64,000 nucleotides of DNA, taken from the NCBI GenBank assembly GCA_963707435.1, contig CAVPPF010000007.1, positions 356,900 to 420,899 on the forward strand. Direction: 5' to 3'. The notes beneath the pieces were generated by a model. The model saw only the letters and a program-made list of their open reading frames with translations. It was not told where the DNA came from and did no database searches. Of the stretch, positions 5,389-47,079 are shown piece after piece (within the stretch, counting starts at the first letter, position 1; each line of letters opens with the position of its first letter). This stretch comes from an uncultured Actinomycetota bacterium. GTDB lineage: Bacteria; Actinomycetota; Acidimicrobiia; Spongiisociales; UBA4744. Both the position numbers and the translations under genes were made by a program.

Positions 5389-5391
5389 ACG

Positions 5392-24443: not shown

Positions 24444-24971
24444 GTGCATACACCTACCTACGCTGAGCTGGTCCGAGACGTACCCGACTTTCCCTCGCCC
24501 GGGATCCTGTTCAAGGACATAACTCCCGTGCTGGCCGAACGCTCGGCCTTCACGGCCCTGGTCGACGATCTGGCCGAACCCTTTGCGGGGAGAATCGACA
24601 AGGTTGCAGGGATCGAAGCCCGCGGTTTCATCCTCGCCACCCCGGTGGCCGAGGCTCTCCGTACCGGTTTTATACCCATTCGCAAGCCGGGCAAGCTCCC
24701 CTGGCGAGTCGTCCGGGAGGAGTATGAGCTCGAGTACGGTCGGGATGCGCTCGAGATCCACGAGGACGCTGTAGATCCTGGAGATCGAGTCCTCGTGGTC
24801 GATGATGTCCTCGCCACGGGTGGTACTGCTGCTGCCGCCGTCCGCCTGCTGCGGCACCTCGGAGCGGAAGTCGTCGGGGTTGCCGTGTTCCTCGAGCTCG
24901 GGTTCCTCGACGGGAGGTCGGCGTTGCAGGATGTCGAACTGCACTCGCTGGTGAACTATGACGGCGGCTGA
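24444..24971 (+). CDS. apt: adenine phosphoribosyltransferase
   Basis: FPSPGILFKDITPVL..VLVVDDVLATGGTAAAA is the PRPP-binding motif. Confidence 0.9.
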   Translation: MHTPTYAELVRDVPDFPSPGILFKDITPVLAERSAFTALVDDLAEPFAGRIDKVAGIEARGFILATPVAEALRTGFIPIRKPGKLPWRVVREEYELEYGRDALEIHEDAVDPGDRVLVVDDVLATGGTAAAAVRLLRHLGAEVVGVAVFLELGFLDGRSALQDVELHSLVNYDGG

Positions 24972-27150
24972 GCCGGCGATTCGAGCCGACGATGCCGTCG
25001 TAGCCGAACTGGCGCCGATCCTGGCCGCCTTTCGAACCCACTATCCGGCCGCCGCCGAGTCGACCATCCACGAGGCGTACGCCCTCAGCCAGAAGATGCA
25101 TCTCGGGCAGTTTCGCAAGTCGGGCGAGCCGTACATCAGCCACCCGCTGGCAGTAACCCAGATCCTCGCCGAGTACGGGCTGGACGGCGACACTCTGGCG
25201 GCGGCGTTGCTGCACGACACCGTCGAAGACACCGAAATCACCCTCGAAGACGTTGAAGCTGCGTTTGGGCCGGAAGTAGCTCGGATGATCGACGGCGTCA
25301 CCAAGCTGGATCGCATTCGATTCGGCACCCGGGAGGAAGCCCAGGCAGCCACCATCCGGAAGATGGTCGTGGCGATGGCGCAGGATGTCCGCGTGCTTCT
25401 CATCAAGCTGGCCGACCGGCTGCACAATCTCCGGACCATCGATCCGTTGCCAACCGAGAAGCAGGAGCGGATTGCCAGAGAGACCCTCGAGGTCTACGCG
25501 CCGCTGGCACACCGGCTGGGGGTGCAAGAGATCAAACACGAAATGGAGGATCGCTGTTTTGCGATCCTCTACCCGAAACGGAACCTCGAAATCGACACGC
25601 TGCTGCAACAGCGGGCTCCCGAACGCGATGCGCAGATACGTACGGCAGTCGACCACGTCGAGACCTTGCTGCGTGAGGCGGCGATACGTGCGGACGTCAC
25701 CGGTCGGCCGAAACACCACTACTCCATCTACCGGAAGATGGTGACGACCGGATTGCCGTTTGAGAAGATCCACGACCTGATCGGGATCCGGGTCATCGTC
25801 GACGATGTCCGCGATTGCTATGCGGCGCTCGGCCTCATCCACTCCGTGTGGCCGCCCGTCCACGGGCGTTTCAAGGACTACATCGCCATGCCCAAATTCA
25901 ACCTCTACCAGAGCTTGCACACCACCGTCATCGGCCCGGACGGCAAGCCGCTCGAAGTACAGATGCGAACCGAAGAAATGCACCACAGAGCCGAGTTCGG
26001 TATCGCGGCTCACTGGCGGTACAAGGAGGGAATCTCGGACGAAGACCTGCCGTGGATGGCAGATCTTCGTTTCCTGCAGGACGAGTACGCGGACCCGAAC
26101 GAGTTCCTGGCCAGTCTGAAACTCGATCTCTACCAGGACGAAGTGTTCGTGCTCACGCCCGGCGGCGACGTCAAGACCTTGCCGCGCGGAGCGACCCCCG
26201 TCGACTTCGCGTACACGGTCCACACCGAAGTTGGACATCGCTGTGTCGGCGCCAAAGTCAACGGCCGTCTGGTCACGCTCGGTACCCGCTTGGAGTCGGG
26301 CGATATCGTTGAGATCGTCACCTCAAAGGCCCAGGACGCGGGACCCAGCCAGGATTGGCTGACCTTTGTTCGGACCACTCGCGCCAAAGCCAAGATCCGG
26401 CAGTGGTTCACCAAAGAGCGCCGGGAGGCGGCGCTGACCGACGGGCGCGAACAAGTTCTCGGTGCGTTGCGCAAGGAGCGGCTGGGACTATCGGCGGCCG
26501 GCCGTGACGTGCTGCTCACCAAGGTCGGAGAGCAGCTCGGGCTGCCCGACCTGGACGCCGTGTTCGTGGCCGTCGGGGAAGGCACCATTGCAGCCGCAAC
26601 CGTCGCCGGCCGGGTCACGAGGCTCGCCCGGCCCGAGGAGACCCTTGCAGATGAAGTGCTGCCGGAGATCCCACGGGAGCGCCCCACCCATACCGGGACC
26701 GGGGTGATCGTGGAGGGCCTGGACGATGTGTGGGTGCGCATCGCTCGTTGTTGTGCCCCCGTGCCGGGCGACGACATCGTCGGTTTTGTCACCGTGGGTC
26801 GGGGTGTCTCCGTTCACCGGTCGGACTGCACCAACGTCGAGGCGATGGGGGATCGGACCGAGCGGATGATCGAGGTCGCCTGGGCGCCCGACCGGGTCGG
26901 TCGATTCTCGGTGTGGATACAGGTGGAGGCGCTCGATCGCCCAAAACTGCTTCGTGACGTCACTTCGCTCATCTCCGACGTCGGCGGCAATATCCTGGCT
27001 TCTTCTTCATCGGTCGGCCGGGACCTGGTGGCCATGCTCCGCTACGAAATCGAGCTGGGTGATCCCGGCCAGGTCGACACCATGGTGAATTCCTTGCGAG
27101 GCGTGGATTCCGTTTTCGATGCCTATCGATTGGTGCCTCGCTCCACGTAG
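24958..27150 (+). CDS. relA: bifunctional (p)ppGpp synthetase/hydrolase RelA/SpoT
   Basis: HD domain HPLAVTQILAEYGLDGDTLAAALLHDTVEDT, synthetase domain (..YRKMVTTGLPFEKIHDLIGIRVIV.., ..QSLHTTVIGPDGKPLEVQMRTEEMH..), TGS and ACT C-terminal domains. Confidence 0.92.
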   Translation: MTAAEPAIRADDAVVAELAPILAAFRTHYPAAAESTIHEAYALSQKMHLGQFRKSGEPYISHPLAVTQILAEYGLDGDTLAAALLHDTVEDTEITLEDVEAAFGPEVARMIDGVTKLDRIRFGTREEAQAATIRKMVVAMAQDVRVLLIKLADRLHNLRTIDPLPTEKQERIARETLEVYAPLAHRLGVQEIKHEMEDRCFAILYPKRNLEIDTLLQQRAPERDAQIRTAVDHVETLLREAAIRADVTGRPKHHYSIYRKMVTTGLPFEKIHDLIGIRVIVDDVRDCYAALGLIHSVWPPVHGRFKDYIAMPKFNLYQSLHTTVIGPDGKPLEVQMRTEEMHHRAEFGIAAHWRYKEGISDEDLPWMADLRFLQDEYADPNEFLASLKLDLYQDEVFVLTPGGDVKTLPRGATPVDFAYTVHTEVGHRCVGAKVNGRLVTLGTRLESGDIVEIVTSKAQDAGPSQDWLTFVRTTRAKAKIRQWFTKERREAALTDGREQVLGALRKERLGLSAAGRDVLLTKVGEQLGLPDLDAVFVAVGEGTIAAATVAGRVTRLARPEETLADEVLPEIPRERPTHTGTGVIVEGLDDVWVRIARCCAPVPGDDIVGFVTVGRGVSVHRSDCTNVEAMGDRTERMIEVAWAPDRVGRFSVWIQVEALDRPKLLRDVTSLISDVGGNILASSSSVGRDLVAMLRYEIELGDPGQVDTMVNSLRGVDSVFDAYRLVPRST

Positions 27151-27288: not shown

Positions 27289-28941
27289 ATGGAGAAGATC
27301 ACGAATCGTCTACGGAGAGATGATGGGTTCACGCTGGTGGAAGCGCTGGCCGCGCTTTCGCTCCTGAGTATTGCCATCATCCTCACCGTCACTCCCGTGT
27401 TGGCCGGCTTCGACGTGCTCAGCGAAGCCAAGCTGGCCACCATCGCCTCCAATCTTGCGCAAGGCCGGGTAGAAGAACTCCGTTCGCTCGAATACGAGGA
27501 AATCGGATTCCCGCTGGGGGTACCGGAAGGCGTGCTCCAGGCGAGTGAGACCGTGACGGCACAGAACATCGACTTCATCGTCACGACCGACGTCAAGTAT
27601 TTCGGGAGCATCAACGCCGGTGAAGACGTGGTACCCCAGGGTGGAGACGGCGTGGAGGGCCTGCCCGACATGGGCATCGACTACAAAGAGGTCACCGTCA
27701 CCGTCAGCCACCACGCCGGAGCCGTCAGGCCGGTCGTGATGCAAACCATCATCGCGCCTCCCAACATCGCCGCACACGAGGGCAAAGCCAACGTGATCGT
27801 CGAGCTGATCAAGGAAGAACCGGTCACCAAACCTCCGAGCCCGGTCGGCTACCCGCAGGTCGTGCTGGTTAAAGACACCGCTTTCTACCCCTTCACCGGT
27901 TCCCCCGGCCAGACGCAGACATTCGCCGGTGTGCCGGCCAACGAGAGCGGAGCAACCGATTACTACTACTACGCCCGCCTGGGCGCGACCCAGACCTCCT
28001 ATGAGGCCAACGGCTGGCGGATCCATCCGACGGATATCGATATCGAAACCGATCGGGTGCACATGGGTCCCACCGAGACGGCCAACGTTCCTGTCCGGAT
28101 CTACCGGCCGGCTGAGATTCTCGTGGAGTTGTTCGACGATGCAACGCTGCTCCCCGTTTGGGTTGGCGCTGAACTGACTCTGGTTTATGAGGGCACGCCC
28201 TACTCCTTCGACACCGGCGATCCCGAGTGGACGGGAACCGCTTTCTCGATCACCGAGATCGACGGAGCTCCCGTGGTGCCCGGCACCTACGATATGACCG
28301 CAACCGCCCTCGGATACAGCCTCGAGACCAGAGCCGATATCGTGATCCCCGAGGACTACCCGACGGACGTCATCCACGAAGAGGCCTTCTACCTGGAGCT
28401 GTCGACCGATGCTTTCCTGGAAGTCCAGGTGGTCGACGGTTCCGGGACCCCGATCGCCGGGGCCAGTGTGACGATCGACGCCGAGTTCGAAGCGCCGTTC
28501 ACGCTCGTCACCGACAGCAACGGCTTTGTTGACTATTCGTGGTCCTACGACAATTTCGACGTGGTCATCGATGTCATCTCGCCGCACGGACACGATCCGG
28601 GCAGCGACTTCGTGGCCAACATCAACGGCCTCAACTCCCGGGTCGTCACCCTGACGGCACCGGCCAACACCGGCGTGATCACGTTCCATGAGGATCAGCC
28701 CTACCGGGTCCAGTACTTCCGCTACCGCCCGGATGGAGGTGCACCGGATGACTGGACGGACGTGTCCCCCAACGCTTCGGGAGAAGCGTCGGTCACCGTC
28801 GCCGCCGGATGGTGGGACGTGCGCAAGGTCTGTACGGCCCTGCGGCCAAACGGCAACCCGAGAACCCGGAACGCCACGGTGTTCGTGAGCACCGGCGGCA
28901 ACGTCTTCTGGTCGTCCTCCACGGACTGCCCGAAACCATGA
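27289..28941 (+). CDS. large prepilin-type (class III signal peptide) minor-pilin-like protein with C-terminal carboxypeptidase-regulatory-like domain
   Basis: MEKITNRLRRDDG|FTLVEALAALSLLSIAIILTV is a prepilin leader with Gly-1 and Glu+5 before a hydrophobic helix. Later ..VVDGSGTPIAGASVTIDAEFEAPFTLVTDSNGFVDYSW resembles a CarboxypepD_reg / Cna-B-like beta-sandwich. Start 27289 chosen over 27193 and 27253 for leader length; weak RBS. Confidence 0.55.
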   Translation: MEKITNRLRRDDGFTLVEALAALSLLSIAIILTVTPVLAGFDVLSEAKLATIASNLAQGRVEELRSLEYEEIGFPLGVPEGVLQASETVTAQNIDFIVTTDVKYFGSINAGEDVVPQGGDGVEGLPDMGIDYKEVTVTVSHHAGAVRPVVMQTIIAPPNIAAHEGKANVIVELIKEEPVTKPPSPVGYPQVVLVKDTAFYPFTGSPGQTQTFAGVPANESGATDYYYYARLGATQTSYEANGWRIHPTDIDIETDRVHMGPTETANVPVRIYRPAEILVELFDDATLLPVWVGAELTLVYEGTPYSFDTGDPEWTGTAFSITEIDGAPVVPGTYDMTATALGYSLETRADIVIPEDYPTDVIHEEAFYLELSTDAFLEVQVVDGSGTPIAGASVTIDAEFEAPFTLVTDSNGFVDYSWSYDNFDVVIDVISPHGHDPGSDFVANINGLNSRVVTLTAPANTGVITFHEDQPYRVQYFRYRPDGGAPDDWTDVSPNASGEASVTVAAGWWDVRKVCTALRPNGNPRTRNATVFVSTGGNVFWSSSTDCPKP

Positions 28942-29633
28942 GTTCCAACCTCGCACGCCTCCACCGCGACGAGCGCGGTCTCACCCTCACCGAAATGTCG
29001 GTGACCGTCATGGTGATGGGAATCGCCCTCGCAGCACTGTCCTCGCTGCTGCTCGGCTTCTTCGGCAACGTCGAGACACAGCTCGCGTTGAGCGACGCGG
29101 AGCGGGACGTTCGCCCGGTGATTCGAGAGATGGTGGTCGAGATACGTCAGGCCGTGCCGCCGTCCGAGGCTGCCAACGCGCTCCCGGTACTCGAGATGGC
29201 GTGGAACAAGCTGACCTTCTACAGCGACCGGCTACCACTGGACGGTGTCCCCGAGAAGCACAGCTACGAACTGATCAATTGCAGCGACGGGGCCAACGGT
29301 GGAACGTGCGACCTGCAACGAACCGTGATCAAGGCTGATGTCTCGTCGGTGCCGCCGACCTTCACCTTCGCCGACAATACGTTGGATCGTCAGGAAATCG
29401 TTCTGACATCCGTCCTCGCCGACCCCTATCTGGCCGAAGGACCGCTCTTTCACGGTGTGAAGTGGGTTGGAACTCCCTCTGCCCGGACGACCATTGCTTC
29501 TTGCGACGCCGCTACCCGCTGCAAGTTCCCGCTGGTGGTCATCGACTTGCGGGTTGATCCGAGCGTCAAGGAGAACCCGGGCAACTACGAGATCCACGAA
29601 GAAGTGAGGTTGCGAAATGCGCCGGCTTCGTAA
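28938..29633 (+). CDS. prepilin-type minor-pilin-like protein
   Basis: MSSNLARLHRDERG|LTLTEMSVTVMVMGIALAALSSLLLGF is a class III signal peptide (Gly-1, Glu+5). ATGA-coupled to the upstream gene. Confidence 0.55.
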   Translation: MSSNLARLHRDERGLTLTEMSVTVMVMGIALAALSSLLLGFFGNVETQLALSDAERDVRPVIREMVVEIRQAVPPSEAANALPVLEMAWNKLTFYSDRLPLDGVPEKHSYELINCSDGANGGTCDLQRTVIKADVSSVPPTFTFADNTLDRQEIVLTSVLADPYLAEGPLFHGVKWVGTPSARTTIASCDAATRCKFPLVVIDLRVDPSVKENPGNYEIHEEVRLRNAPAS

Positions 29634-31176
29634 CGAATCCGGGTTGGCCCTCGCCACCGTGCTCGTCGCAATTCTGGTACTCACGCTGTTCACCACGCTC
29701 CTGTTGCGTGAAGCAATCACCCAACGCCAGCAGTCGGAGTTTCAGGCTCGCGAGGATGTCGTGGTGGCAGGCGCTGAGGCCATGCTCGAGCGGTACGCCG
29801 CCAAGCTGACCATCGATCCGCTCTACTTCATGCACTGGGTCGATGAGGGCGAACGGGCCAGGGTTTGTCAAACCGCGAGCTCAGCGGGGTTCGGTCAGCC
29901 GGCCGTGCAACCGGGGAACCCGTGGCCGTGGCCCGACTGTGAAGCGTGGACCTACGAGGATCCAGATCGCGACGGGGACGGCAATCCGGACACAGACTGG
30001 TATGTTCACCCAATTCTGGACGGTACGCTCGCTGCTGCGCGCGATGATATCGGCGTTCTCTTGGAGGTGTATCCACCTACCGGCCAGCCGCTCGAAGTCC
30101 TGGTGGTCGGCAAGCGAGGCGATTGGGTGCACCGCCGGGCAATCTCGGCCACCGTCAAAGCCACGTCGCTTTCGGAGTTCTACCGCGTGACGGAGAACGA
30201 CCTGTCGTATGGCTCGAATCGTGAGACCTGGGGCAAGGTCTACTCGGGGGGCGACGTGAGCTACGGGTCGAACGGAAAGGCTCATGCAGACGTGTTCGCT
30301 GAGGGCGACATCACCAACCCACCACAGTGGCTCGACGATGCCGAAGGTTGGGAGGGGACTCCGAGCGGCTCCTACAACGACATCCGCGACGCGTATCCGC
30401 AACCGCTCGACTTCAACGACTTCTGGGACGACCTGGACACACTCAAGTCTGCCGCGTGTTCGGGCGGTGGCCTCTGTTTGGACGACGCCGACGCCGACGG
30501 CTGGCGCATCCACCCGTACGTGACGGCTGCAGGCGAAGGGAAGCTCCGTGTCTGCAAATCGACGACCAACCAGACCGAAACCTGGTGGTGGACCAACGGC
30601 CAATCGTCGCAGTTCAACACGTGCAGTACCGAAGACATCCCTGCGAACGGCACGGTATGGACGAACGAGCATGTGGTCATCGGGGACCGCTCGTTCACGG
30701 GCGGATTCAACGACGATCGCCTCCTCGGCGACGGATTCAGTGAGGCAATCCTGCGCGGCTCGCTCACCATCTACGCGGGAACCGTGACGGACAAGAAGAA
30801 CGTCATTCTCAACGCCGACACCACCTACGACGATCCCAATTCGTTCGACGTCCTCGGCCTGATCGCCTCCGATGAAGTCATCATCAACAGTTACGCAACC
30901 GGTGCAGACAGGAAGTTCTACATCAGCGCCGCCTTGCTCGGCCAGTACGACAAGTGGCGGGCCGAGGGGAACGCCCCTTCGGGATCGACGTTGATCACCA
31001 GTGGTTCCATCGCGACCAGAAGCACAGGATCGATCTCGGGTGAGTTCCCGTACGCTCAATACGGTTTTGACGATCGGATGGAATTCGTCCGGCCACCCTT
31101 CTATCCGCTGCTCGTGAACGACTGGTCCTACCAGGACTGGACCGAGTTGCCGCTCCCGGCCTGGGCAACGCCGTAG
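29617..31176 (+). CDS. PilX-N-terminal-domain-like protein (minor pilin / pilus-associated)
   Basis: MRRLRNESGLALATVLVAILVLTLFTTLLLREAITQRQ fits the PilX_N pattern. It is followed by a 480 aa Cys- and Trp-containing extracellular region and overlaps the upstream gene by 17 nt. Confidence 0.5.
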   Translation: MRRLRNESGLALATVLVAILVLTLFTTLLLREAITQRQQSEFQAREDVVVAGAEAMLERYAAKLTIDPLYFMHWVDEGERARVCQTASSAGFGQPAVQPGNPWPWPDCEAWTYEDPDRDGDGNPDTDWYVHPILDGTLAAARDDIGVLLEVYPPTGQPLEVLVVGKRGDWVHRRAISATVKATSLSEFYRVTENDLSYGSNRETWGKVYSGGDVSYGSNGKAHADVFAEGDITNPPQWLDDAEGWEGTPSGSYNDIRDAYPQPLDFNDFWDDLDTLKSAACSGGGLCLDDADADGWRIHPYVTAAGEGKLRVCKSTTNQTETWWWTNGQSSQFNTCSTEDIPANGTVWTNEHVVIGDRSFTGGFNDDRLLGDGFSEAILRGSLTIYAGTVTDKKNVILNADTTYDDPNSFDVLGLIASDEVIINSYATGADRKFYISAALLGQYDKWRAEGNAPSGSTLITSGSIATRSTGSISGEFPYAQYGFDDRMEFVRPPFYPLLVNDWSYQDWTELPLPAWATP

Positions 31177-31238: not shown

Positions 31239-31886
31239 TTGCGCATCGCCGGGACCTCGTTGTGGCTCGCCGAAACCAATTGCTGGGTGCTGGCCCCGGA
31301 GGGCGGCGGACCCGGCGTGCTGATCGACGCTCCGCCGGACCCCGACGGAGTCCTGGCGTTGCTGGCAGAGCTGCGAGTAACGCCGGTGGCCCTGCTGCTG
31401 ACGCACGGACATATCGATCACACCGGGGGAGCGGGTGTTGTCGTTGGAACGACGGGAGTCCACGCCTACGTCCATCCCGATGATGACTACCTGACGCTGG
31501 ACCCGCTCGGCCAGTTGCGGATGCTCTTCGGCATGGTTCCGCCCGGCGACTTCTCACCTCCGGCCACCCGGCTGCCGCTCGCCGACGGTGACATCCTTCG
31601 GGTGGCAGGCGCCGAACTGGAGGTCCTCCACACGCCCGGACACACTCCGGGACACTGCTGCTTCCTGCTGCGTTCCGAGGGCGTGCTCTTCTCCGGTGAT
31701 CATCTCTTTGCCGGCTCGATCGGCCGCACCGATCTGCCCGGCGGGGACTACGACACCTTGATGAACAGCATGCGCCGCAAGGTGCTCCCGCTCGACGATG
31801 ACGTGCTCGTATACCCGGGGCACGGTCCGACGACTACGCTGGCCCGCGAACGCTCGACCAATCCTTTCCTCCAAGAGTTGATCTGA
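31239..31886 (+). CDS. MBL-fold metallo-hydrolase (glyoxalase II-like)
   Basis: LLTHGHIDHTGGAG...HTPGHTPGHCCF...GDHLFAGSIGRTDLPGGDYDTL are metallo-beta-lactamase motifs. Confidence 0.8.
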   Translation: MRIAGTSLWLAETNCWVLAPEGGGPGVLIDAPPDPDGVLALLAELRVTPVALLLTHGHIDHTGGAGVVVGTTGVHAYVHPDDDYLTLDPLGQLRMLFGMVPPGDFSPPATRLPLADGDILRVAGAELEVLHTPGHTPGHCCFLLRSEGVLFSGDHLFAGSIGRTDLPGGDYDTLMNSMRRKVLPLDDDVLVYPGHGPTTTLARERSTNPFLQELI

Positions 31887-36468: not shown

Positions 36469-39091
36469 ATGGATTCCAATCAGCTCCGATCGACCTTTCT
36501 GAAGTTCTTCGAAGCACGCTCTCACACCGTGCGGCCGTCTTCGTCGCTGATACCCGTCGACCCGACGCTGCTGCTGAACAACGCCGGCATGGTGCCGTTC
36601 AAGCCCTACTTCCTGGGCGAGGAACAGCCGCCCTGGTTGCGAGCCGTCTCGTCGCAGAAGTGTGTTCGAACCGTCGATATCGACATCATCGGGACCACCG
36701 CTCGCCACGCCAGCTTCTTCGAGATGCTCGGCAACTTCAGCTTCGGCGACTACTTCAAGGAAGACGCTATTCCGTGGGCCTACGAGCTGGTGACGGAGGC
36801 GTTCGGCATCGACCCCGAGTTCCTGTGGTTCACCGTTCACGAGACGGATGACGAGGCCGCCGAAATCTGGCTCGACAAGGTCGGCGTCGAGCCTCACCGG
36901 TTGCAGCGGCGCGGTCACGACAACTTCTGGCAGATGGGCGTGCCGGGACCCTGCGGACCCAGCTCGGAGATCTTCTTCGACCGTGGCTCCGCCTACGGGC
37001 CCGACGGGGGACCGGTCGTTGATGAGGAGCGGTTCGTCGAGATCTGGAATCTCGTGTTCATGCAGAACATCCAGGACGAGCCCTACCACGTCGTGGGAGA
37101 TCTCCCGGCGAAGAGCATCGACACGGGAATGGGCCTCGAGCGCATGGCCACCGTCATGCAAGGGGCAGCAACCATCTTTGATATCGACGTCGTGCGGCAT
37201 GTCCTCGACACGGCCGCCCGATCGGCCGGAGTGGCCTACGGCGAAGACCCCATGGTGGACGTGTCGTTGCGGGTCCTGGCCGACCACGGACGGGCGATGA
37301 CGTTCCTCATCGGCGACGGCGTGGTCCCTTCGAACGACGGGCGCGGATACGTGCTCCGCCGCATCCTGCGCCGGGCCGTCCGGCACGCCTGGAGATTGGG
37401 CGGCGAAGGTTTGATCACGCCCAAACTGGTTCAGGCCACGGTCGACGTCATGAGCCCCGGGTATCCGGAATTGCTGGATCAGCAGGGCTTCATCACCGAT
37501 GTTGTGACCCGGGAGGAGGCACGCTTCCGTCAGACGCTGCGGTCCGGGCACACCCTGCTCGAAACCGAACTGGAATCGATCGCCGAGGGTGAGCCCCTTT
37601 CCGGTGACACAACGTTCAAACTGCACGATACGTTTGGATTCCCGGTCGAACTGACCAAGGAAATCGCTGCGGAGCGCGGTGTGGAGATCGACCTGGGAGC
37701 GTTCGAGGCCGCCATGGATGAGCAGCGTAGGAAAGCCCGGGCTGCCTGGAAAGGTGGCGAGGACGCGGCGAGCTGCCGATGCCTACCGGATCCTGCTGGA
37801 TGACATCGGCCCGACCGAGTTCCTCGGGTACACGCACGAGGCCAGCCAGAGCAGGGTGCTCTCGCTCCTCAGGGAGGGAGAGGTCATCGACCGCGCCGAG
37901 GAAGGCCAGGAGGTGGAGGTCTTCCTCGATCGGACGCCGTTCTACGCGGAGGCGGGTGGCCAGGTCGGCGATACCGGTCTGATCGAGACCGATACCGGCC
38001 GCCTCACGGTCAGGGACACCCAGGCCGGCGTACCCGGTCTCAACGGCCATCGCGCGGTGGTGGCAAGCGGCTTCGTGCAGGTCGGGCAAGACGCTCAGGC
38101 CAGGATCGATTCGCCGCGCCGGGAGGGCATCCGCAAGAGCCACACCGGAACGCACGTCCTGCACTGGGCCCTCCGCAAGGTCCTCGGTACCCACGTTCAG
38201 CAGGCCGGTTCGCTCGTCCAGAACGGTCGTTTGCGATTCGATTTCAGCCATTTTGGAGGCCTGGAGGAGGACGAATTCTCCGAGGTCGAGCGACTGGCGA
38301 ATGAACGGGTCATCGCCAACGCGGGCGTGCGAGCATTTGAAACCAGCAAAGACGAGGCGCAGGCGCTGGGAGCACTGGCCTTCTTCGGCGACAAGTACGG
38401 CGAGGTTGTGCGGGTCGTCGAGATCGGCGACTACTCGAAGGAGCTGTGCGGTGGCACGCATACTCCTTCGGTCGGCCAGGTTGGTCCGCTCGTAGTCATG
38501 GGCGAATCCTCCATCGGATCGAATCTCCGGCGCATCGAGGCCTACTCCGGCGAGCACGCCTACCAGTACCTGACCGGACTCCGGAGACGTTTGACCGACA
38601 CCGGCCACCTGTTGCGTGCCCAGCCCGACGAGGTGCCCGCCCGGGTCGCCGCCCTCATGAAGCGGGCCAAAGAGCTCGAAGAGGAACTGGCCGCAATCGG
38701 ACAACGATCGCGAGCAGAAGCAGCCGTCGAAATCGCCGCGAACGCCGGAACGATCGGCGAGGCCAAGTGGGCGGTAGCCGGCGTCGGTGAGATGCCGCCC
38801 GACCAATTGCGGGTGCTCGCCCTGCAAGTCCGCGACCGCCTCGGTCGCAGTGTGGTCGTGCTCGGAAGCACCAATGAAGGCAAGGGTGCCCTGCTGGCTG
38901 CGGTGTCCGCCGACCTGGTTGCTGCCGGGTTGTCCGCAGCCGAAATCATTCTTCCCGCCGCCAGGATCCTCGGAGGGGGAGGCAGCCGGGATCCCGAGCT
39001 TGCGCAGGCCGGCGGGCCTCGCGGGGACCGGCTGGAGGAAGCTCTCGACGCTGCCAGGGAAGCCGCCGCAAGCGCCCTGACGGAGGTGTGA
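36469..39091 (+). pseudogene. alaS: alanine--tRNA ligase, reading frame broken by an apparent +1 frameshift near 37771
   Basis: ORF 36469..37803 is a complete AlaS N-terminal catalytic half (..FFEMLGNFSFGDYFK.., ..DTGMGLERM..) ending ..RKARAAWKGGEDAASCRCLPDPAG*. ORF 37679..39091 in the +1 frame is the C-terminal half (..AADAYRILLDDIGPTEFLGY.., HTGTHVLHWAL zinc motif, ..CGGTHTPSVGQVGP..). Removing one base around gcggcgAgctgcc (about 37771) joins them as ..GGEDAA-AADAYRIL... Confidence 0.85.
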
Positions 39092-39501: not shown

Positions 39502-40586
39502 TGGTCGACGTTCCTCCCGAACCGCGAGGCGACGGTCTGCGGCGCGTCGGCGGCCTCGTGTTGCTGATCGTCATCCTCGGCGGCGCCTACCTGGGAGCCC
39601 GGGAGCTCGCCGACTGGGTCGGCGGGCTTGGTGGGATCTCCGACGTGACGGCACCGCCGGGTCTCGAGCCGGGACTGCCCGTCTCTGTGGAGATACCACC
39701 CGGCTCGGCCGCGCGTCAGATCGGAGTCCTTCTCGCCGAGGCGGGCGTTGTCGAGTCCGCCGGTCAGTTCGAGCTCGCCGTTCGCACGACCGAAACAGCA
39801 GAACGTCTCCAGGCAGGCCGCTACGACCTGGAGACCGGGATGGCGAACGACGTTGTCATCGACCTGTTGCTGCGCGGACCGATCATCGAGACCTTTCGCG
39901 TAACCGTACGCGAAGGCCTGTGGATCGGGGAGGTCCTCGACGAGATCGCCAGGCAGACCGATTTCGCCCGGACTGAACTGGAGCAGGCGCTGAGTACGGT
40001 GAACTCCTCACTGCTGCAGGGCCCCGCCTCCGACCCGATCTCTTGGGAAGGCCTGCTCTTCCCCGACACCTACGATTTCCCTCTCGACGCCGGGCCCGGG
40101 GACGTTCTCCAGCGGCTCGCCGACACCATGCAACAACGGGTCGCGGCGATCGACTGGTCCGAACTGGAATCGCGCGGACTCACGGTCTACGACGGGATCA
40201 TCATTGCATCGCTGATCGAAGCAGAAGCGGGCGTCGACGCCGACCGGCCGCTGATCGCGAGTGTGGTCGTCAACCGACTCGAGGCACCGATGGTGCTGGG
40301 CATCGACGCAACGGTGATCTACGCGCTGGGGGAGCGCGGCAAGTCGCTCACGGTTTCAGATCTCGACGTCGACTCACCGTACAACACCAGGAAGTTCCCC
40401 GGCCTCCCTCCGACCCCTATCGGCGGACCGGGGCGAGCTTCGCTCGAGGCAGCCGCATCCCCGGAAGACACCGACTTCCTCTACTACGTGCTGACCTCGG
40501 CAACCGGCGAGCATTCATTCACGGCCAGCTACGACGAGTTCCTCGCGTTCAAGCAGCAAGCCGTGGAGGACGGACTCATTCCCTGA
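39501..40586 (+). CDS. mltG: endolytic murein transglycosylase
   Basis: N-terminal TM then YceG-like domain: ..GLLFPDTYDF.., ..IIASLIEAEAG.., ..LGIDATVIYALGERGKSLTVSDLDVDSPYNTRKFPGLPPTPIGGPG. Confidence 0.85.
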   Translation: MVDVPPEPRGDGLRRVGGLVLLIVILGGAYLGARELADWVGGLGGISDVTAPPGLEPGLPVSVEIPPGSAARQIGVLLAEAGVVESAGQFELAVRTTETAERLQAGRYDLETGMANDVVIDLLLRGPIIETFRVTVREGLWIGEVLDEIARQTDFARTELEQALSTVNSSLLQGPASDPISWEGLLFPDTYDFPLDAGPGDVLQRLADTMQQRVAAIDWSELESRGLTVYDGIIIASLIEAEAGVDADRPLIASVVVNRLEAPMVLGIDATVIYALGERGKSLTVSDLDVDSPYNTRKFPGLPPTPIGGPGRASLEAAASPEDTDFLYYVLTSATGEHSFTASYDEFLAFKQQAVEDGLIP

Positions 40587-41395
40587 TGGCCGGCGACGTC
40601 GAACAGCATTGGGATCTGGTCCTGTTCGGTGATCCCGTCGACCACTCGTTGTCACCGGTGATCCAGCAGGCGGCTCTCGACGCGATCGGATTGGCGGGCA
40701 CCTACCGGGCCGTCCGCGTGGACGAGGCAGGCTTTCGACGCGGGTGCGCGGAGCTCCGGGAAGGGCGATGGCGCGGCGCCAACGTCACGATGCCCCACAA
40801 ACGGCTCGCCTGTGCCGAGGTGGACGCTCGAACCGATGAAGCAGGTCGCGCCGGGTCGGTCAACACCATTGTTGTCGACGGCGCGCGGTTGATCGGGCAC
40901 AGCACCGATATCGAAGGCATCCGCACAACCTGGGACGAAGCCGAACTTCCGGACCATGCTCCGGTGCTGGTGCTGGGCGCAGGCGGCGCAGCGGCGGCCG
41001 CCGTGATCGCCGCAGGCTCAACCGATGTGTTCCTCGCGGCCCGCCGCCTCGAGCTTGCCGCCGCTCTCGCTCGGGACGTGGACGTTGCCGTTCGCCCACT
41101 GCCGTGGGGAACGGCGGTTGCCGGAGCCGTCGTCGTCAACGCCACGCCGCTCGGCATGTCCGGCGAATCACTGCCACCCGGCATTGTGGAACAAGCCGCC
41201 GGATTGCTCGACATGGCATACGGACGCTCCACCACGCCTGCAGTGCAGACCGCCCGCAGCCGCGGAATTCCCCACGCGACCGGAACCGATCTCTTAGTGG
41301 CCCAGGCGGCGGCTTCGTTCACGCTCTGGACCGGCCGGGCAGCGCCGGTGGCGGCGATGCGGGCTGCGCTCCAAAAGGCTCAAGCGACAGGCTAG
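40586..41395 (+). CDS. aroE: shikimate dehydrogenase
   Basis: LFGDPVDHSLSPVIQQAAL (the AroE SxS motif), ..ANVTMPHK.., ..VLVLGAGGAAAAAV.. (Rossmann). Start at MAGDVE overlapping the mltG stop. The upstream ORF-track extension lies inside mltG and is rejected. Confidence 0.8.
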   Translation: MAGDVEQHWDLVLFGDPVDHSLSPVIQQAALDAIGLAGTYRAVRVDEAGFRRGCAELREGRWRGANVTMPHKRLACAEVDARTDEAGRAGSVNTIVVDGARLIGHSTDIEGIRTTWDEAELPDHAPVLVLGAGGAAAAAVIAAGSTDVFLAARRLELAAALARDVDVAVRPLPWGTAVAGAVVVNATPLGMSGESLPPGIVEQAAGLLDMAYGRSTTPAVQTARSRGIPHATGTDLLVAQAAASFTLWTGRAAPVAAMRAALQKAQATG

Positions 41396-41436
41396 GAGCG
41401 CCGAAACTCCCTGAGAGTCGGTACGGAGGAGTCTTC

Positions 41437-42342
41437 ATGTCGCTAACCGGTGCCCTCGAGGCATTTCCGCTTCCCGAGGTACTTCGCCTCCTGGCGCGGT
41501 CGGAAAAGAGCGGGACGCTGAGAATTGACGCATCCGACCTGCAAGGTCGGATCTACCTCACAGATGGTTCGCTCAGCTACGCGACGACCCGCCGCGAGGA
41601 GGATCTGGTCGATGATCTTGTCGGAGCGGGTTTGATCGACTCCCAGGACTGGGTGCTGGTCGAGCGCCGCGAGAAGGACGTCGTCGAAGTTCTGGCCGCA
41701 GACGCCACCGAGCAGCAACTGACCGACCTCCTGGCCGACCAGATCGCCGATGTCATCTTTCGATTGATGCGCCGCAGCGACGGCGACTTCGAATTCTCGG
41801 AGTCCGTCGGCCCGCGCTACAACACGGGGATCAGCGTTGACATCGACGCCTCGATAGCCGAGGCGGAGAAACGAAACGCGCAGTGGTCGGAGATCGAGGA
41901 CGTGATCCCGGCGATCACGTTCCATCTGCGCATGGTTCCCGATCTCAACGACCGCAACGAGGTCTCCGTTCCGTCGACTACCTGGAGGGTGCTCGCCGCC
42001 CTGCAGGGTGAGGGAAGCATCGAAGAGGTAGCACGACGACTGGGAATGACCGACTTCGCCGTCGCGCAGATCATGGCCGGACTTGCCCGGGACGGTCTGC
42101 TCGAAATCGTCGATATGCCGCCACCCGCCGCCTACGGGTACGGTGACGTGCCCCAGGAACCACAGCAAGCCCCGGCGCCGCAACCGGAAGCTCCCGTCGA
42201 GGACGACCAGGATGACGAAATCCTTCTCGAATCGGCGTTGTCCGATGTCGTGGCACCCGAAGAGGATCCTGACGCTCCGGTGATCGCCCGCAGACGTGGC
42301 CTCGGCGCCCGTGTCCAGGAAGCTAAGGACGCCGGTGAGTAA
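41437..42342 (+). CDS. PATAN/DUF4388-domain protein with acidic Pro-rich C-terminal tail
   Basis: Start MSLTGAL after GGAGG. ..GALEAFPLPEVLRLLARSEKSGTLRIDASDLQGRIYLTDGSLSYATT fits the DUF4388/PATAN pattern. A winged-helix-like segment (..EEVARRLGMTDFAVAQIMAGLARDGLL) follows. Tail is PPPAAYGYGDVPQEPQQAPAPQPEAPVEDDQDDEILLESALSDVVAPEEDPDAP. Lies immediately upstream of pilB. Confidence 0.6.
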   Translation: MSLTGALEAFPLPEVLRLLARSEKSGTLRIDASDLQGRIYLTDGSLSYATTRREEDLVDDLVGAGLIDSQDWVLVERREKDVVEVLAADATEQQLTDLLADQIADVIFRLMRRSDGDFEFSESVGPRYNTGISVDIDASIAEAEKRNAQWSEIEDVIPAITFHLRMVPDLNDRNEVSVPSTTWRVLAALQGEGSIEEVARRLGMTDFAVAQIMAGLARDGLLEIVDMPPPAAYGYGDVPQEPQQAPAPQPEAPVEDDQDDEILLESALSDVVAPEEDPDAPVIARRRGLGARVQEAKDAGE

Positions 42343-42349
42343 TCGAGCC

Positions 42350-44032
42350 ATGGTCCAGCGGGATGCGGGACATCTCGGGACGCTCCTCCTCGAGGAGGGC
42401 ATCGTCACCGAGGAGACCCTCAAGAAGGGCCTCGATCTCCACCATGAGACCGGCCGTCCACTCGGACGCGTCCTCGTGGAAGAGAACCTGGTCGAAGAAC
42501 GCGACCTCGTCCGGGTACTCGCCAAGAACATCGGGATCGAATTCGTCGACCTGGACGAGGGTGCCGTCGACCCGGCCGCCGCAGCCCTGATCCCCGAAGC
42601 TCTGGCCAGGCGCTACGCCGCACTGCCCATCGGTTTTGAGGACGAGAAGCTCGTGATTGCGATGGCCGACCCGGCCAATGTGCTGGCGATCGACGACATC
42701 CGGGCGATCTCCGGGCGTGAGGTGATCCTCAAGGTAGCCACCCGCTCGGATGTGGAGGCTGCGGTATCCCGTCTTGCCTCGCTCGACAACTCTGTGACCG
42801 ATATGGCCGAGCTCGCCGCCGAGGACTCGGTTGAGGCGCATGATCTCAGCGCCGTTGAAGCGGCGGCGGATGAGGCGCCGGTCGTCAAGCTGGTCAACAT
42901 GCTGATTACCAGGGCAGCCGCCGACCGTGCTTCGGACATCCACATCGAACCAACCGAACGAGACCTCAGAGTCCGATTCCGGATCGACGGTGTACTCCAC
43001 GAGATCATGCGGACTCCCCGTTCGATCTCAAATGCGCTCGTCAGCCGGCTCAAGATCATGGCCGACATCGACATCGCCGAGCGGCGCCGTCCTCAGGACG
43101 GACGCATCAACCTGAAGGTCGGTGGCAAACAGCTCGACCTCCGCGTGTCGAGCCTGCCCACCATCTACGGCGAGAAAGTCGTAATGCGGCTGCTCGATAC
43201 CGGTACGGCACTGCTCGAGCTCAAGGATCTCGGATTCCTCGGTGAAAACGAGCGGCGCTACCAGGAATCGTTCAGCAAGCCGTACGGGACCATCCTGTGC
43301 GTCGGGCCGACCGGTTCCGGCAAGTCGACCACGCTCTATGCAACGCTCAACGTCCTCAACCGGCCGGAAGTGAACATCGTGACGATCGAGGACCCGGTCG
43401 AGTACCGGCTGCCGGGAATCAGCCAGGTCCAGGTGAACAAGAAGGCCGGCCTCAACTTCGCATCGGCCTTGCGCTCGTTCCTGCGCCAGGACCCGGACAT
43501 CATGCTGGTTGGTGAGATCCGTGACCAGGAGACGGCGAACATCGCCATTGAATCGGCGCTGACCGGCCACCTGGTTCTTTCCACGCTCCACACCAACAAT
43601 GCTCCCGCCAGTGTCAGCCGCTTGATCGAGATGGGGGTCGAACCGTTCCTGGTGGGCTCCGCCCTCGACGCAGTCTTGGCGCAGCGCCTCGCCCGACGGT
43701 TGTGCAGTCACTGCAAAGAGGAATACACCCCAACGGCGGAGGCGCTTCGGGAAGCCAACTTCCCCATGGAGGATCGCGATGAAGCGCCCAAGCTGCACCG
43801 GGCCGTTGGCTGCAAACACTGCGCAAATACCGGCTACCGGGGCCGGCTGGCAGTCCATGAGTTGATGACCGTGAACGAGGAGATCGAGTTGCTGACCGTT
43901 GAGCGAGCCGCCACCGAGAACCTGACGCGGGCGGCTATCGCCAACGGAATGCGGACCCTCAGACAGGACGGCATGGACAAGGTTGCCATGGGGCTCACCT
44001 CCATCGAGGAGATCATGCGGGTGATCATCTAG
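42350..44032 (+). CDS. pilB: type IV pilus assembly ATPase
   Basis: Two N-terminal GspE_N/MshEN-like repeats (..LGTLLLEEGIVTEETLKKGL.., ..PLGRVLVEENLVEERDLVRVL..), a T2SSE_N domain, Walker A VGPTGSGKSTT, Asp/His boxes and the tetracysteine CSHC...CKHC. Confidence 0.88.
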   Translation: MVQRDAGHLGTLLLEEGIVTEETLKKGLDLHHETGRPLGRVLVEENLVEERDLVRVLAKNIGIEFVDLDEGAVDPAAAALIPEALARRYAALPIGFEDEKLVIAMADPANVLAIDDIRAISGREVILKVATRSDVEAAVSRLASLDNSVTDMAELAAEDSVEAHDLSAVEAAADEAPVVKLVNMLITRAAADRASDIHIEPTERDLRVRFRIDGVLHEIMRTPRSISNALVSRLKIMADIDIAERRRPQDGRINLKVGGKQLDLRVSSLPTIYGEKVVMRLLDTGTALLELKDLGFLGENERRYQESFSKPYGTILCVGPTGSGKSTTLYATLNVLNRPEVNIVTIEDPVEYRLPGISQVQVNKKAGLNFASALRSFLRQDPDIMLVGEIRDQETANIAIESALTGHLVLSTLHTNNAPASVSRLIEMGVEPFLVGSALDAVLAQRLARRLCSHCKEEYTPTAEALREANFPMEDRDEAPKLHRAVGCKHCANTGYRGRLAVHELMTVNEEIELLTVERAATENLTRAAIANGMRTLRQDGMDKVAMGLTSIEEIMRVII

Positions 44033-44138
44033 CGGAGCGGCCGGGACCGGGCGGGCCGCGGAAACCTTCAAGCCGGAGCGATCCGGTGCCGAAACTCAAG
44101 TGAGGCAGATCGCCTCGAAGGGAAACTGGAAGAGAGCA

Positions 44139-45704
44139 ATGAACACAGCATCACGCAGACTCGGTGAGCTCCTGGTTGATCGCAGGTTGCTGTCCAAGGA
44201 CAGCCTGGAAGGCCTCCTGGAGAAGGAAACCGCGACCGGCGTTCCCATTGCCAAGCTCCTCATCGATGGCGGGCACGTCCGCGAGGAAGACTTGCTCCGA
44301 GCCGTTGCCGACCGGGTCGGCATGCTGTACATAGATCTCGACGATGCGCTGCTCGATCCGGAAGCCGTCGGCATGATCGACGCCGACGCCGCCAGGCAGC
44401 TCATGGTCATACCCGTCCGCACGGAAGACGAGAAGGTCGTCGTCGCCGTAGCGGATCCCTTCGACCCGGAGACCCACGTGCGTCTCGAGAAGACGCTCGG
44501 AGTAGGTGTCACCCTCGCCCTGGCCACCCGGGCGGCTATCGGCAGAGCCATCGATTTCGTCCACGGTGCCGAACAGGTTCCGCTCGTCCGCCAACCCGGA
44601 ATGCCGGCGCAGGAGGGGACGATCAGCGAACCCGAGACCTTGCATCTCAACGAACTCCTCGGCATTCAGCTCGATCGCGGCGGATCCGACCTGCACCTCA
44701 CCGCCGGCTCCCACCCGCAGATCCGGGTGCACGGAAAACTAGAACGACTGAGCGACTTTCCGATCATGAAACCGGCCGAGTTGCGCCGCATGATCTACAG
44801 CATTCTCACCGAGAAACAGCGGGAGAAGCTCGAAGAAACCCTGGAACTCGACGCTTCCCATCCGGTGCCCGGACGTGGCCGTTTTCGCATGAACGTGTAC
44901 TTTCAGCGCGATTCGATCGGCGCCGCCTTTCGAGCCATTCCGACCGACATCATGTCGCTCCAGCAGCTGGGGATCCCACCGTCGGTCGGTGAGCTGGCCG
45001 ATTTGCAGCGCGGCCTGGTGCTGGTCACCGGTCCTACCGGGTCCGGCAAGTCGACGACCCTGGCGGCTCTCATCGACATGGTGAACAGCAAGCGTTCGTG
45101 CCACATCCTGACCGTCGAGGATCCAATCGAGTTCCTCCACGTGCACAAGCAGGCAATCGTCAACCAACGCGAGGTTGGGGCGGACACGCTCGGCTTCGGC
45201 CCCGCCTTGAAACACGCCCTACGGCAGGACCCCGACGTGATCCTGGTAGGTGAGTTGCGGGACCTCGAGACCATCTCGACCGCTCTGACGGCTGCAGAGA
45301 CCGGTCACCTCGTGTTCGCAACGTTGCACACGCAGGATGCACCGCAGACGATCGACCGGATTGTCGACGTATTTCCTTCACACCAGCAGCAACAGGTGCG
45401 GGTCCAGCTCGCCTCGACCATCCAGGCCATCATGACGCAGCAACTCGTGCCGCTGCGGACCGGCAAGGGTCGGGTCCCGGCAGTCGAGGTGATGGTTGCC
45501 ACGTCTGGGATCCGGAACCTCATCCGGGAATCAAAGAACCATCAGATCACCACAGCGATGCAAGCCGGTGGCAAACACGGCATGCAGACCATGGATCAGG
45601 CTCTGGCAGACCTGGTTCGCCGCAATCTCATCTCGTACGCGGTAGCCGTGGAACGCTGCATGAACCTGGAGGATTTCCAAAGGCTCGCGGGCCGGATGGC
45701 ATAG
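44139..45704 (+). CDS. pilT: PilT-type twitching/retraction ATPase with about 150 aa N-terminal GspE_N-like extension
   Basis: Core: TGPTGSGKSTTLAAL, GIRNLIRESK (PilT AIRNLIRE motif), ..PSHQQQQVRVQLASTIQAIMTQQL... N-terminus: RRLGELLVDRRLLSKDSLEGLLEKE (MshEN-like) then ..LLRAVADRVGMLYIDLDDALLDPEAVGMIDADAARQLMVIPVRTEDEKVVVAVADPFDPE.. (T2SSE_N-like). Start at MNTASRRLGEL after GAAGAGAG; 13 codons upstream are rejected. Confidence 0.82.
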   Translation: MNTASRRLGELLVDRRLLSKDSLEGLLEKETATGVPIAKLLIDGGHVREEDLLRAVADRVGMLYIDLDDALLDPEAVGMIDADAARQLMVIPVRTEDEKVVVAVADPFDPETHVRLEKTLGVGVTLALATRAAIGRAIDFVHGAEQVPLVRQPGMPAQEGTISEPETLHLNELLGIQLDRGGSDLHLTAGSHPQIRVHGKLERLSDFPIMKPAELRRMIYSILTEKQREKLEETLELDASHPVPGRGRFRMNVYFQRDSIGAAFRAIPTDIMSLQQLGIPPSVGELADLQRGLVLVTGPTGSGKSTTLAALIDMVNSKRSCHILTVEDPIEFLHVHKQAIVNQREVGADTLGFGPALKHALRQDPDVILVGELRDLETISTALTAAETGHLVFATLHTQDAPQTIDRIVDVFPSHQQQQVRVQLASTIQAIMTQQLVPLRTGKGRVPAVEVMVATSGIRNLIRESKNHQITTAMQAGGKHGMQTMDQALADLVRRNLISYAVAVERCMNLEDFQRLAGRMA

Positions 45705-45717
45705 GAGGACCGGACAC

Positions 45718-46941
45718 ATGGCGACATCAACGTTCACCTACAAGGTCAAGGACAAGACGGGCAAGCTGCACGACGGCGAGATGCAGGCTTCGTCCCAGTC
45801 GGCCGTGGCCAAGGCGCTGCGTGAGCGCGGGTTTGTGCCGGTTGCGGTGGAGGAGAAGAAGGCTTCGACGCTCCAGATGGAGATCAAGATCCCCGGTCTG
45901 TCCGGTCGGGTGAAGGTCAAGGAGGTCTCGGTCTTCAGCCGCCAGTTCGCCACCATGATCAACTCGGGCCTCTCGCTGCTGCGTTCCCTGACCATCCTGG
46001 CCGAACAGACGCCGAACCGTGCTTTCCGAGACATCATTCTCGAGGTCAAATCCGACGTGGAGAAGGGGTCGTCGCTTTCCCAGGCTCTGGAGAAGCACCC
46101 GAAAGTATTCCCCAGGCTCTATTCCTCCATGGTGAAGTCGGGTGAGGTTGGTGGTGTTCTGGACGAGACGCTCGAGCGATTGGCGCTGACGCTCGAGGCG
46201 CAGGTCGAACTCCGGTCTCAGGTCAAGTCGGCCATGATGTACCCGGCTGCGGTTTTCGGGTTGGTCATCTTCATCGTCATCGCCATGCTGCTGTTCGTCG
46301 TGCCGATGTTCGAATCGATGTTTGCCGACTTCGGAGCGGAACTTCCGCTCCCGACCCGGATGCTCATGTCGCTTTCGGTAATCTTCACTACGTACTGGTA
46401 CGTTGCCATTGGTGGCACGGTCGCGGCGATCTACGGCTTCAAGCGGTGGATCGCCACCGATCGCGGTCGCAGCAGGTTCGACGCCATCAAGCTGAAAATG
46501 CCCATTTTCGGCAAACTGGTCCACAAAACTGCGCTGGCCCGTTTCTCGCATACCCTGGCCGCCCTGACCCGGACCGGTGTTCCCATTCTGATGGCGATGG
46601 ATATCGTGGCCGAAACCTCCGGCAATGCCGTGGTTGCCCGGGCCGTGCACAGCGTGCAGGCCTCGGTGAAAGAGGGAGAGTCGATCGCCGAACCGCTCTC
46701 GAACCATCCTGTGTTCCCGCCGATGGTCGTGCAGATGATGGCCGTCGGGGAGGAGACGGGCGCGCTCGACACGATGTTGGAGAAGGTCGGCGATTTCTTC
46801 GACCGGGAGGTCAAGACGATGGTCGAAGGTCTTACCAGCCTCATCGAGCCTCTCCTGGTCGTGATCCTGGGTGCCACCGTCGGCGGCATGCTGCTGGCGC
46901 TCTACCTGCCCATCTTCAACGTCATCACGCTGATCGACTAA
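45718..46941 (+). CDS. pilC: type IV pilus platform protein (GspF family)
   Basis: Duplicated T2SSF domains (..SRQFATMINSGLSLLRSLTIL.., ..LARFSHTLAALTRTGVPILMAMD..) and three TM blocks. AGGAGG RBS. Confidence 0.88.
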   Translation: MATSTFTYKVKDKTGKLHDGEMQASSQSAVAKALRERGFVPVAVEEKKASTLQMEIKIPGLSGRVKVKEVSVFSRQFATMINSGLSLLRSLTILAEQTPNRAFRDIILEVKSDVEKGSSLSQALEKHPKVFPRLYSSMVKSGEVGGVLDETLERLALTLEAQVELRSQVKSAMMYPAAVFGLVIFIVIAMLLFVVPMFESMFADFGAELPLPTRMLMSLSVIFTTYWYVAIGGTVAAIYGFKRWIATDRGRSRFDAIKLKMPIFGKLVHKTALARFSHTLAALTRTGVPILMAMDIVAETSGNAVVARAVHSVQASVKEGESIAEPLSNHPVFPPMVVQMMAVGEETGALDTMLEKVGDFFDREVKTMVEGLTSLIEPLLVVILGATVGGMLLALYLPIFNVITLID

Positions 46942-47079
46942 CGACCGGTCGACGCACTAGTCACTTCCGGCGCAGATGAATAGGCAGCAAGTAGCGAATT
47001 GCCGCTCAACTCTCGGCCACGTAGGGCCGATATCTACTGATGAGGGCCGAACGCCGGCTCTCTCCAAAGGAGGAATCTC

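Follow-up and report, generated by a model that had tools for sequence, protein, structure and literature searches.

The 64-kb stretch of DNA analysed here (the window), from a contig of an uncultured member of the Acidimicrobiia, carries between relA and the gene for a metallo-beta-lactamase (MBL) hydrolase three consecutive genes for large proteins with prepilin-type N-termini, which we call g1, g2 and g3:

27289-28941, + strand: g1, predicted modular minor pilin, 550 aa
28938-29633, + strand: g2, predicted minor pilin, 231 aa
29617-31176, + strand: g3, predicted tip pilin of the PilX/GspK/ComZ type, 519 aa

A first-pass annotation made from the letters alone had placed three open reading frames (ORFs) of these positions and sizes between relA and the MBL hydrolase/hisS; they are indeed there, and the N-termini it quoted are found verbatim. 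The overlaps of 4 nt (ATGA) between g1 and g2 and of 17 nt between g2 and g3 argue that the three genes form one translationally coupled operon. That these ORFs arose by chance or artefact was considered and rejected, since their conservation speaks against it. An upstream start for g1 at 27193 was rejected, its homologues beginning at the MxK codon that matches 27289.

The prepilin character of the proteins can be followed from their first residues. The g1 N-terminus reads MEKITNRLRRDDG/FTLVEALAAL (the slash marks the predicted cleavage site), with a 13-aa leader cut after G13; that of g2 reads ..RDERG/LTLTEMSVTV, with a 14-aa leader; and that of g3 reads MRRLRNESG/LALATVLVAILV, with a leader that ends in G9 and no Glu at position +5. 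The scores of g1 against Pfam N_methyl (PF07963; 21.6 bits, cut-off 21.2) and of g2 against TIGR02532 (21.5 bits, cut-off 16.3) are borderline taken singly, and it is the conservation among homologues that makes these pilin signatures real. Residues G13, F14, T15 and E18 of g1 are invariant across 20-22 homologues, down to 28% identity; the 19 homologues of g2 all keep G14 and at least 90% of them keep E19, and N_methyl is matched by 17 of the 19 family members (best E 4e-8). The earlier claim of class III signal peptides in g1 and g2, which staked itself on Gly-1 and Glu+5 surviving realignment with homologues, is borne out: both scores pass their cut-offs and both residues hold in both families.

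Among the relatives of g3, a short basic leader is present in all 41 aligned sequences (three rows of this alignment are N-terminally truncated gene calls), Gly-1 before the hydrophobic segment is conserved in at least 90%, and the +5 residue is T, A, S or V in 41 of 41, never Glu. Loss of Glu+5 is a hallmark of the apical subunit GspK/PilX among the minor pilins of type II secretion systems (T2SS) and type IV pili. Judged by these motifs, g1 and g2 qualify as type IV prepilins and g3 as the GspK/PilX exception that does without Glu+5; cleavage of all three by PilD, the prepilin peptidase encoded in the window, is expected. A motif scan of the 64 kb found canonical prepilin N-termini only in g1, g2 and pilA. 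Near-invariant Cys pairs are present in g1, g2 and g3, which fits with an extracytoplasmic location of the three proteins.

The AlphaFold2 (AF2) prediction for g3, with a predicted local distance difference test (pLDDT) of 87.4 and a predicted template modelling score (pTM) of 0.82, gives the following:

g3 element order, + strand: leader to G9; helix 8-66; pilin sheet 145-184; beta-solenoid ~187-485; C-terminal strand (AF2 model)
31108-31149 (aa 498-511), + strand: C-terminal beta-strand of g3, after the solenoid (AF2 model)

The pilin sheet (145-184) consists of three strands, the solenoid of ~300 residues carries one packing helix, and the segment R480...W516 around the C-terminal strand is near-invariant. 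From this order of elements, together with the match to ComZ, we infer that strand 498-511 completes the pilin sheet in cis. The fold matches of g3 are ComZ and GspK, and in a Foldseek search ComZ was the sole significant match (E 9e-6). As modelled, g3 has the architecture of ComZ, in which the last strand of a GspK-like pilin domain is preceded by a large beta-solenoid. Pfam and NCBIfam searches gave no family match for g3; among its family members PilX_N is detected in 3 of 41 (best E 4e-7), distant superfamily members matching weakly, and pAdhesive_15 is weakly matched by three. Mature g3 is strongly acidic (pI 4.30; 75 D+E vs 36 K+R). Searching with a profile of the g3 family gives 2087 cluster representatives at E <=0.001, 785 of them reaching E <=1e-10, and a cluster look-up gave no names for the distant relatives; by this measure the superfamily is large and essentially unannotated.

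In g1 a small pilin appears to have been extended by a long stalk:

g1 aa ~14-165, + strand: pilin module, GspI/PilV-type (fold match)
g1 aa ~166-550, + strand: about four CnaB/transthyretin-like beta-sandwiches (AF2 model)
28420-28524 (aa 378-412; VVDGSGTPIAGASVTID...TDSNG), + strand: CarboxypepD_reg-like stretch of g1 (PF13620)

The AF2 model has a pLDDT of 75.9 overall and of 85-94 across the sandwiches. In it the N-terminal module has the small alpha-beta pilin fold, with GspI/XcpV as its fold match, and the C-terminal modules have the transthyretin-like/CnaB sandwich fold. The PilV equivalog TIGR02523 reaches 19.8 bits with g1, far under its cut-off of 52.2 and aligned over the N-terminal 54 residues only. 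CarboxypepD_reg (PF13620) matches with 34.7 bits (cut-off 32.3), in the third of the roughly four sandwiches, where strands 375-455 are confidently modelled; the Cna-B-like sandwich that had been reported to end g1 is thus present but does not lie at the end of the protein.

Several further observations concern g1 and its homologues. A loop at aa 106-130 (27604-27678, GSINAGEDVVPQGGDGVEGLPDMGI) is nearly invariant in the family and has a pLDDT below 50 in the monomer model; it is deleted in the distant homologue P0093, and might mediate contacts between subunits or bind a metal. The stalk varies among homologues: that of relative L021 (7577-9337) has a long Thr/Ser-rich linker between sandwiches (TTTTSTTTTTTTTTTVPTSSTTTTVP...), and the Gaiellaceae protein (L005, 3938-7393) reaches 1151 aa with several CarboxypepD_reg matches, so that stalk length looks evolutionarily adjustable. 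On the metagenome contig L002 (4627-6930) g1 and g2 are called as a single gene of 767 aa, which may be a genuine fusion or the product of an indel error.

The middle gene, g2, encodes a protein with four near-invariant Cys (115/124/189/195). Pfam and NCBIfam matched its N-terminal motif alone, and a profile search of Protein Data Bank (PDB) sequences matched only pilin N-termini. When its profile was aligned by hhalign to GspG, GspH, GspI and GspJ of E. coli K-12, only the first 23-45 residues aligned; GspG and GspH rank over GspJ, so that the comparison does not discriminate. We infer from gene order and size, with g2 standing between an I-type and a K-type gene, that it belongs to the PilW/GspJ class. 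The order I-?-K agrees with gspIJK and pilVWX, and to that extent the parallel drawn at first pass with the fimU-pilVWX operon stands; its FimU/GspH-type fourth pilin has no counterpart in the operon.

The operon was then followed through relatives, as 40 loci with a g3 relative taken from species-representative genomes (loci reach 10 kb), nearly all labelled Acidimicrobiia or Actinomycetota. On every contig long enough to show it, g1, g2 and g3 are direct neighbours with their order unchanged, and none of the five genomic contexts seen separates them. Both relA upstream and the MBL hydrolase downstream are found at 28 of the 40 loci, with one of the two seen before the contig ends at eight more; of the remaining four, two are too short to judge and two differ (L037 and L015). 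In L015 the three genes lie in an unrelated neighbourhood. L037 reads pilC-pilA-pilD-pilM-pilN-pilO-orf-g1-g2-g3-aroC-aroK-aroB-efp: here the three genes are appended to the pilus cluster at the point where that of the window ends, with aroC directly after g3. In the P0093 contigs the 615-aa g1 homologue P0093, followed by genes for 200 and 452 aa, comes directly after pilD-pilB, and small pilins, a PilT-like ATPase, pilM and pilN are encoded on its contig too. On a Gaiellaceae contig the counterparts are a multi-sandwich pilin (1151 aa), a protein with N_methyl (204 aa) and one with PilX_N (471 aa). The link to pilus genes was judged by physical linkage in the L037 and P0093 contigs: the unit keeps its integrity while changing context and has twice become joined to pilus clusters, which is strong neighbourhood evidence of pilus function.

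The relA-MBL slot of some relatives also holds a second, different three-gene minor-pilin set, upstream of g1 in L021 (4186-7517) and L028 (~2900-6300) and downstream of g3 in L027 (11643-14088) and L023 (~6400-8900). Its I-like pilin has 443 or 179 aa, another pilin (165-173 aa) ends in ..VRNAG, and the remaining protein, of ~450-465 aa, is PilX_N-like. The presence of this set suggests that the slot is a variable minor-pilin island; in the window it holds one set only.

The window itself encodes a pilus machine in its main pilus cluster (42296-51375), ~11 kb downstream of g1-g3. The three genes had been described as lying far from this cluster, which the distance does not support. The cluster comprises:

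42296-44032, + strand: pilB (TIGR02538, 644 bits)
44100-45704, + strand: gene for a PilT-family retraction ATPase with an N-terminal MshEN-like extension (TIGR01420, 469.7 bits, cut-off 319.1)
45718-46941, + strand: pilC
47080-47532, + strand: pilA, major pilin, 150 aa (NEEG/FTLVELMVVV; prepilin motif scan)
47641-48411, + strand: pilD, prepilin peptidase (A24) (A24_N_bact E 2.8e-35; Peptidase_A24 E 1.3e-13)
48571-51375, + strand: pilM, pilN, pilO and an ORF for a 169-aa membrane-anchored protein, alignment subcomplex (family scan)

PilB, PilT, PilC and PilMNO are encoded within 42296-50869, and the best NCBIfam match of PilA is the type IV PilA model, under the cut-off of that model. No minor pilins were found within this cluster. 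Nor was a PilY1/PilC beta-propeller domain found in g1-g3, in the pilus cluster or in the other window ORFs scanned (the scan covered part of the window ORFs), in line with the earlier remark that a PilY1 homolog is missing.

Within its wider surroundings (40043-52567) the cluster begins with a DUF4388/MarR-like gene, followed by pilB-pilT-pilC-pilA-pilD-pilMNO-orf, and it is inserted between aroE and aroC of a conserved row alaS-mltG-aroE...aroC-aroK-aroB-efp. In the PilT-family ATPase, TIGR01420 covers residues 183-521, preceded by an additional MshEN-like domain of ~180 aa, which scores 60.7 bits against Pfam MshEN and 35.6 bits, just below the cut-off of 38, against the NCBIfam motif for binding of cyclic di-GMP (c-di-GMP). 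An MshEN-like extension normally belongs to PilB/MshE extension ATPases. Its sequence suggests that pilus retraction might be regulated by c-di-GMP.

The window at large has a high GC content (~0.63) and carries conserved actinobacterial housekeeping genes, and proteins and loci identical or nearly identical to those of the window were found in metagenome-assembled genomes (MAGs) of uncultured Acidimicrobiia/Actinomycetota. Upstream of g1 lie secF, apt and relA (24958-27150), and downstream of g3 the MBL hydrolase gene (31239-31886), hisS and aspS. A scan for promoters and terminators around the g1-g3 operon gave nothing useful. The alaS gene (36469-39091) is split over two reading frames, the switch from frame 1 to frame 2 falling at ~37772-37800 by TBLASTN with the AlaS of L021; this is most likely an error of one base in the assembly of this essential gene, seen as a 1-nt frameshift. 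Other indel errors are therefore possible in the window; g1-g3 are nevertheless intact and collinear with their homologues.

We propose that g1, g2 and g3, as equivalents of PilI/PilV, PilJ/PilW and PilK/PilX, probably code for the core minor-pilin complex that initiates, and forms the tip of, the retractile type IVa pilus encoded 11 kb downstream. The first-pass annotation had already seen a separate operon of large prepilin-type proteins as a candidate tip or priming complex, and the conservation of Gly-1 and Glu+5, the g3 N-terminus, the fold matches and the neighbourhood all support it in this. Its further statement that the globular regions resemble no known family gives way before the fold matches to GspI, to CnaB/transthyretin sandwiches and to ComZ.

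Published work supplies a framework for how such a complex may operate. The sheet of PilK receives its last strand either in trans, from the C-terminus of PilC/PilY1, or in cis, from PilK itself; the PilI-PilJ dimer recognises the folded PilK sheet; and systems without a tip adhesin, Thermus ComZ among them, typically have a large insertion between sheet and donor strand (PMC13533445). In ComZ a solenoid resembling that of FfIBP is placed between the penultimate strand and the final one of the GspK-like pilin domain (PMC6561018), and every cyanobacterial PilX has a solenoid insertion, proposed as a substitute for the PilY1 'plug' (bioRxiv 10.64898/2026.02.12.705559). As modelled, the layout of g3 is exactly that of the PilY1-free systems with an insertion before the donor strand. 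We envisage that g1, g2 and g3 would enter the membrane by their N-terminal helices and be trimmed by PilD after the conserved Gly. Lacking Glu+5, g3 would occupy the apical position, its own C-terminal strand, which follows the ~300-aa beta-solenoid, completing its pilin sheet in cis, so that PilY1/PilC would not be needed. The g1-g2 pair would dock on g3, and the trimer would template PilA polymerisation on PilC, driven by PilB. The complex would remain at the tip, with the g3 solenoid and the four-sandwich g1 stalk facing outward as the contact surface. That contact would most likely serve adhesion to a surface or polymer: adhesion is what CnaB-type stalks and 'adhesive' solenoids of ice-binding-like form suggest by analogy, whereas the ComZ precedent points to DNA.

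Several results weigh against a tip complex of this kind. The globular domain of g2 is unclassified, profile searches aligning its N-terminal helix only, and a FimU/GspH-type fourth pilin was not found by motif scan in the operon or in the 64-kb window. The pilin module of g1 is modelled with low confidence (pLDDT ~35-75). When g3 is superposed globally on ComZ the fit is poor, with a template modelling score (TM) of 0.24-0.27, which indicates a shared architecture rather than close superposition, and a relation at the sequence level is undetectable by profile search of PDB sequences. The g3 of the window itself has no match to Pfam PilX_N (PF14341); of the PilX_N-like N-terminus claimed for it earlier, the GspK/PilX type (Gly-1, no Glu+5) stands and the family match does not. 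Finally, all 40 loci come from uncultured MAGs.

A possible objection concerns the ligand: the same tip complex could serve DNA capture in natural transformation, with g3 as the DNA receptor, as proposed for ComZ-PilA2 of Thermus and the Com-type sets of cyanobacteria. ComZ, the closest solved structure to g3, does bind DNA (PMC6561018), a PilT-family retraction ATPase is encoded, and the second minor-pilin set of some relatives is reminiscent of cyanobacteria with their two specialised sets (bioRxiv 10.64898/2026.02.12.705559). The strong acidity of g3 speaks against a DNA receptor, an argument weakened by the fact that PilA, g1 and g2 are acidic too; g3 moreover lacks sequence similarity to ComZ, so that the DNA-binding lysines of the latter cannot be mapped on it, and the CnaB-type domains in the stalk of g1 are of a kind typical of adhesins. 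No comEA, comEC or dprA was seen in the family scan, which covered part of the ORFs of the 64-kb window. We regard DNA capture as unlikely, while giving it a real share of the probability. A more elaborate form of the adhesive tip has a smaller share still and is doubtful: that the Acidimicrobiia have a two-armed, PilY1-free variant in which the four-sandwich stalk of the I-type pilin and the solenoid of the K-type pilin jointly form the adhesin, three minor pilins suffice without an H-type one, and the position beside relA could mean co-transcription with that gene. The evidence for co-transcription is thin, being the 138-nt relA-g1 gap, in which a scan shows no promoter-like or terminator-like site; if it did occur, it would link pilus priming to the stringent response.

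Two other explanations would take the proteins away from a surface pilus altogether. They might cap a short secretion pseudopilus, a T2SS-like piston, as their fold matches to the T2SS pseudopilins GspI and GspK would allow, GspK too giving its last strand in cis (PMC13533445). The machine nearby, however, has PilM/N/O and a PilT-family retraction ATPase, its major pilin is closest among NCBIfam models to type IV PilA (below cut-off), neither a secretin nor GspC/L was found among the ORFs scanned, and the large outward modules suit display better than a piston. T2SS are not known in monoderm Actinomycetota, and we consider a pseudopilus very improbable. Alternatively, g1-g3 might be PilD-processed stand-alone adhesins, anchored in the membrane or wall like the archaeal bindosome and never part of a filament. 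The size of g1 and g3, far above that of ordinary pilins, and the separation of the operon from the pilus cluster in the window and in most relatives would agree with this. The conserved I-J-K-like order, the lack of Glu+5 in g3, the pilin-domain fold matches and the joining of the three genes to pilus clusters in two independent lineages all tell against it, to a degree that leaves it scarcely credible.

The tip complex that we favour is less novel than the first-pass annotation had it, for solenoid-bearing PilX/ComZ proteins in place of PilY1, and modular pilins, have already been described (PMC6561018; bioRxiv 10.64898/2026.02.12.705559; PMC13533445; PMC8179133). Every element of the design has precedent: I-J-K tips in T2SS, type IVa pilus (T4aP), Com and Tad systems, solenoids in ComZ and cyanobacterial PilX, and modular pilins. 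What is specific here is the occurrence in uncultured Acidimicrobiia, the I-type pilin with a sandwich stalk of ~385 aa, the lack of an H-type pilin in the operon and window, and the conserved position beside relA. The analysis gives a structural annotation to families that carry only the labels 'hypothetical' or 'prepilin-type N-terminal cleavage/methylation domain' in public sources and are without a full-length Pfam model, and it adds an abundant uncultured Actinomycetota lineage of soil and water to the Deinococcota and Cyanobacteria as bearers of a PilY1-independent tip design with a solenoid. It fits a recent proposal that cis supply of the last PilK strand is widespread. Its practical value lies in better annotation and in a candidate adhesin set for the attachment of Acidimicrobiia.

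The nearest known system is ComZ (with PilA1-3) of Thermus thermophilus (PDB 6qvi), which has the same architecture as g3: a GspK-like pilin domain, a large triangular beta-solenoid of ice-binding type and a final C-terminal strand (PMC6561018). The lengths are close (518 residues in the ComZ chain, 519 aa in g3), and both are encoded beside small minor pilins without PilY1. Differences lie in the identity of only 11-15%, with no profile match and a global TM of ~0.26; in the actinobacterial, probably monoderm host of g3 and the marked acidity of g3; and in the 385-aa sandwich stalk on g1, the partner I-type pilin. The Thermus partner pilins are not known to have such an extension. The cyanobacterial FimT-PilW-PilV-PilX sets, likened here by description, have a PilX solenoid before the last strand as a proposed tip plug, no PilY1 and, in some genomes, two alternative sets, as in L021, L028, L023 and L027 (bioRxiv 10.64898/2026.02.12.705559); the present operon has three genes, lacks a FimT/GspH-type subunit and belongs to another lineage.

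With the GspI-GspJ-GspK/XcpV-W-X tip (PDB 3ci0, 5vtm, 5bw0) and with PilV-PilW-PilX of Pseudomonas, g1-g3 share the I-J-K order and a K subunit without Glu+5. In GspK, however, the insertion is alpha-helical and lies mid-sheet, whereas in g3 it is a solenoid before the last strand; GspI has ~120 aa against 550 in g1; and Pseudomonas also requires PilY1 and FimU/PilE. For g1, a comparison can be made with modular type IV pilins such as PilB/PilC of Streptococcus sanguinis and CofB of enterotoxigenic E. coli (ETEC), in which a small pilin module likewise bears C-terminal non-pilin modules with expected tip exposure; their modules are von Willebrand factor A (vWA) or lectin domains, where those of g1 are about four CnaB/transthyretin-type sandwiches (PMC8179133), and the carrier in g1 is a GspI-type pilin within an I-J-K operon.

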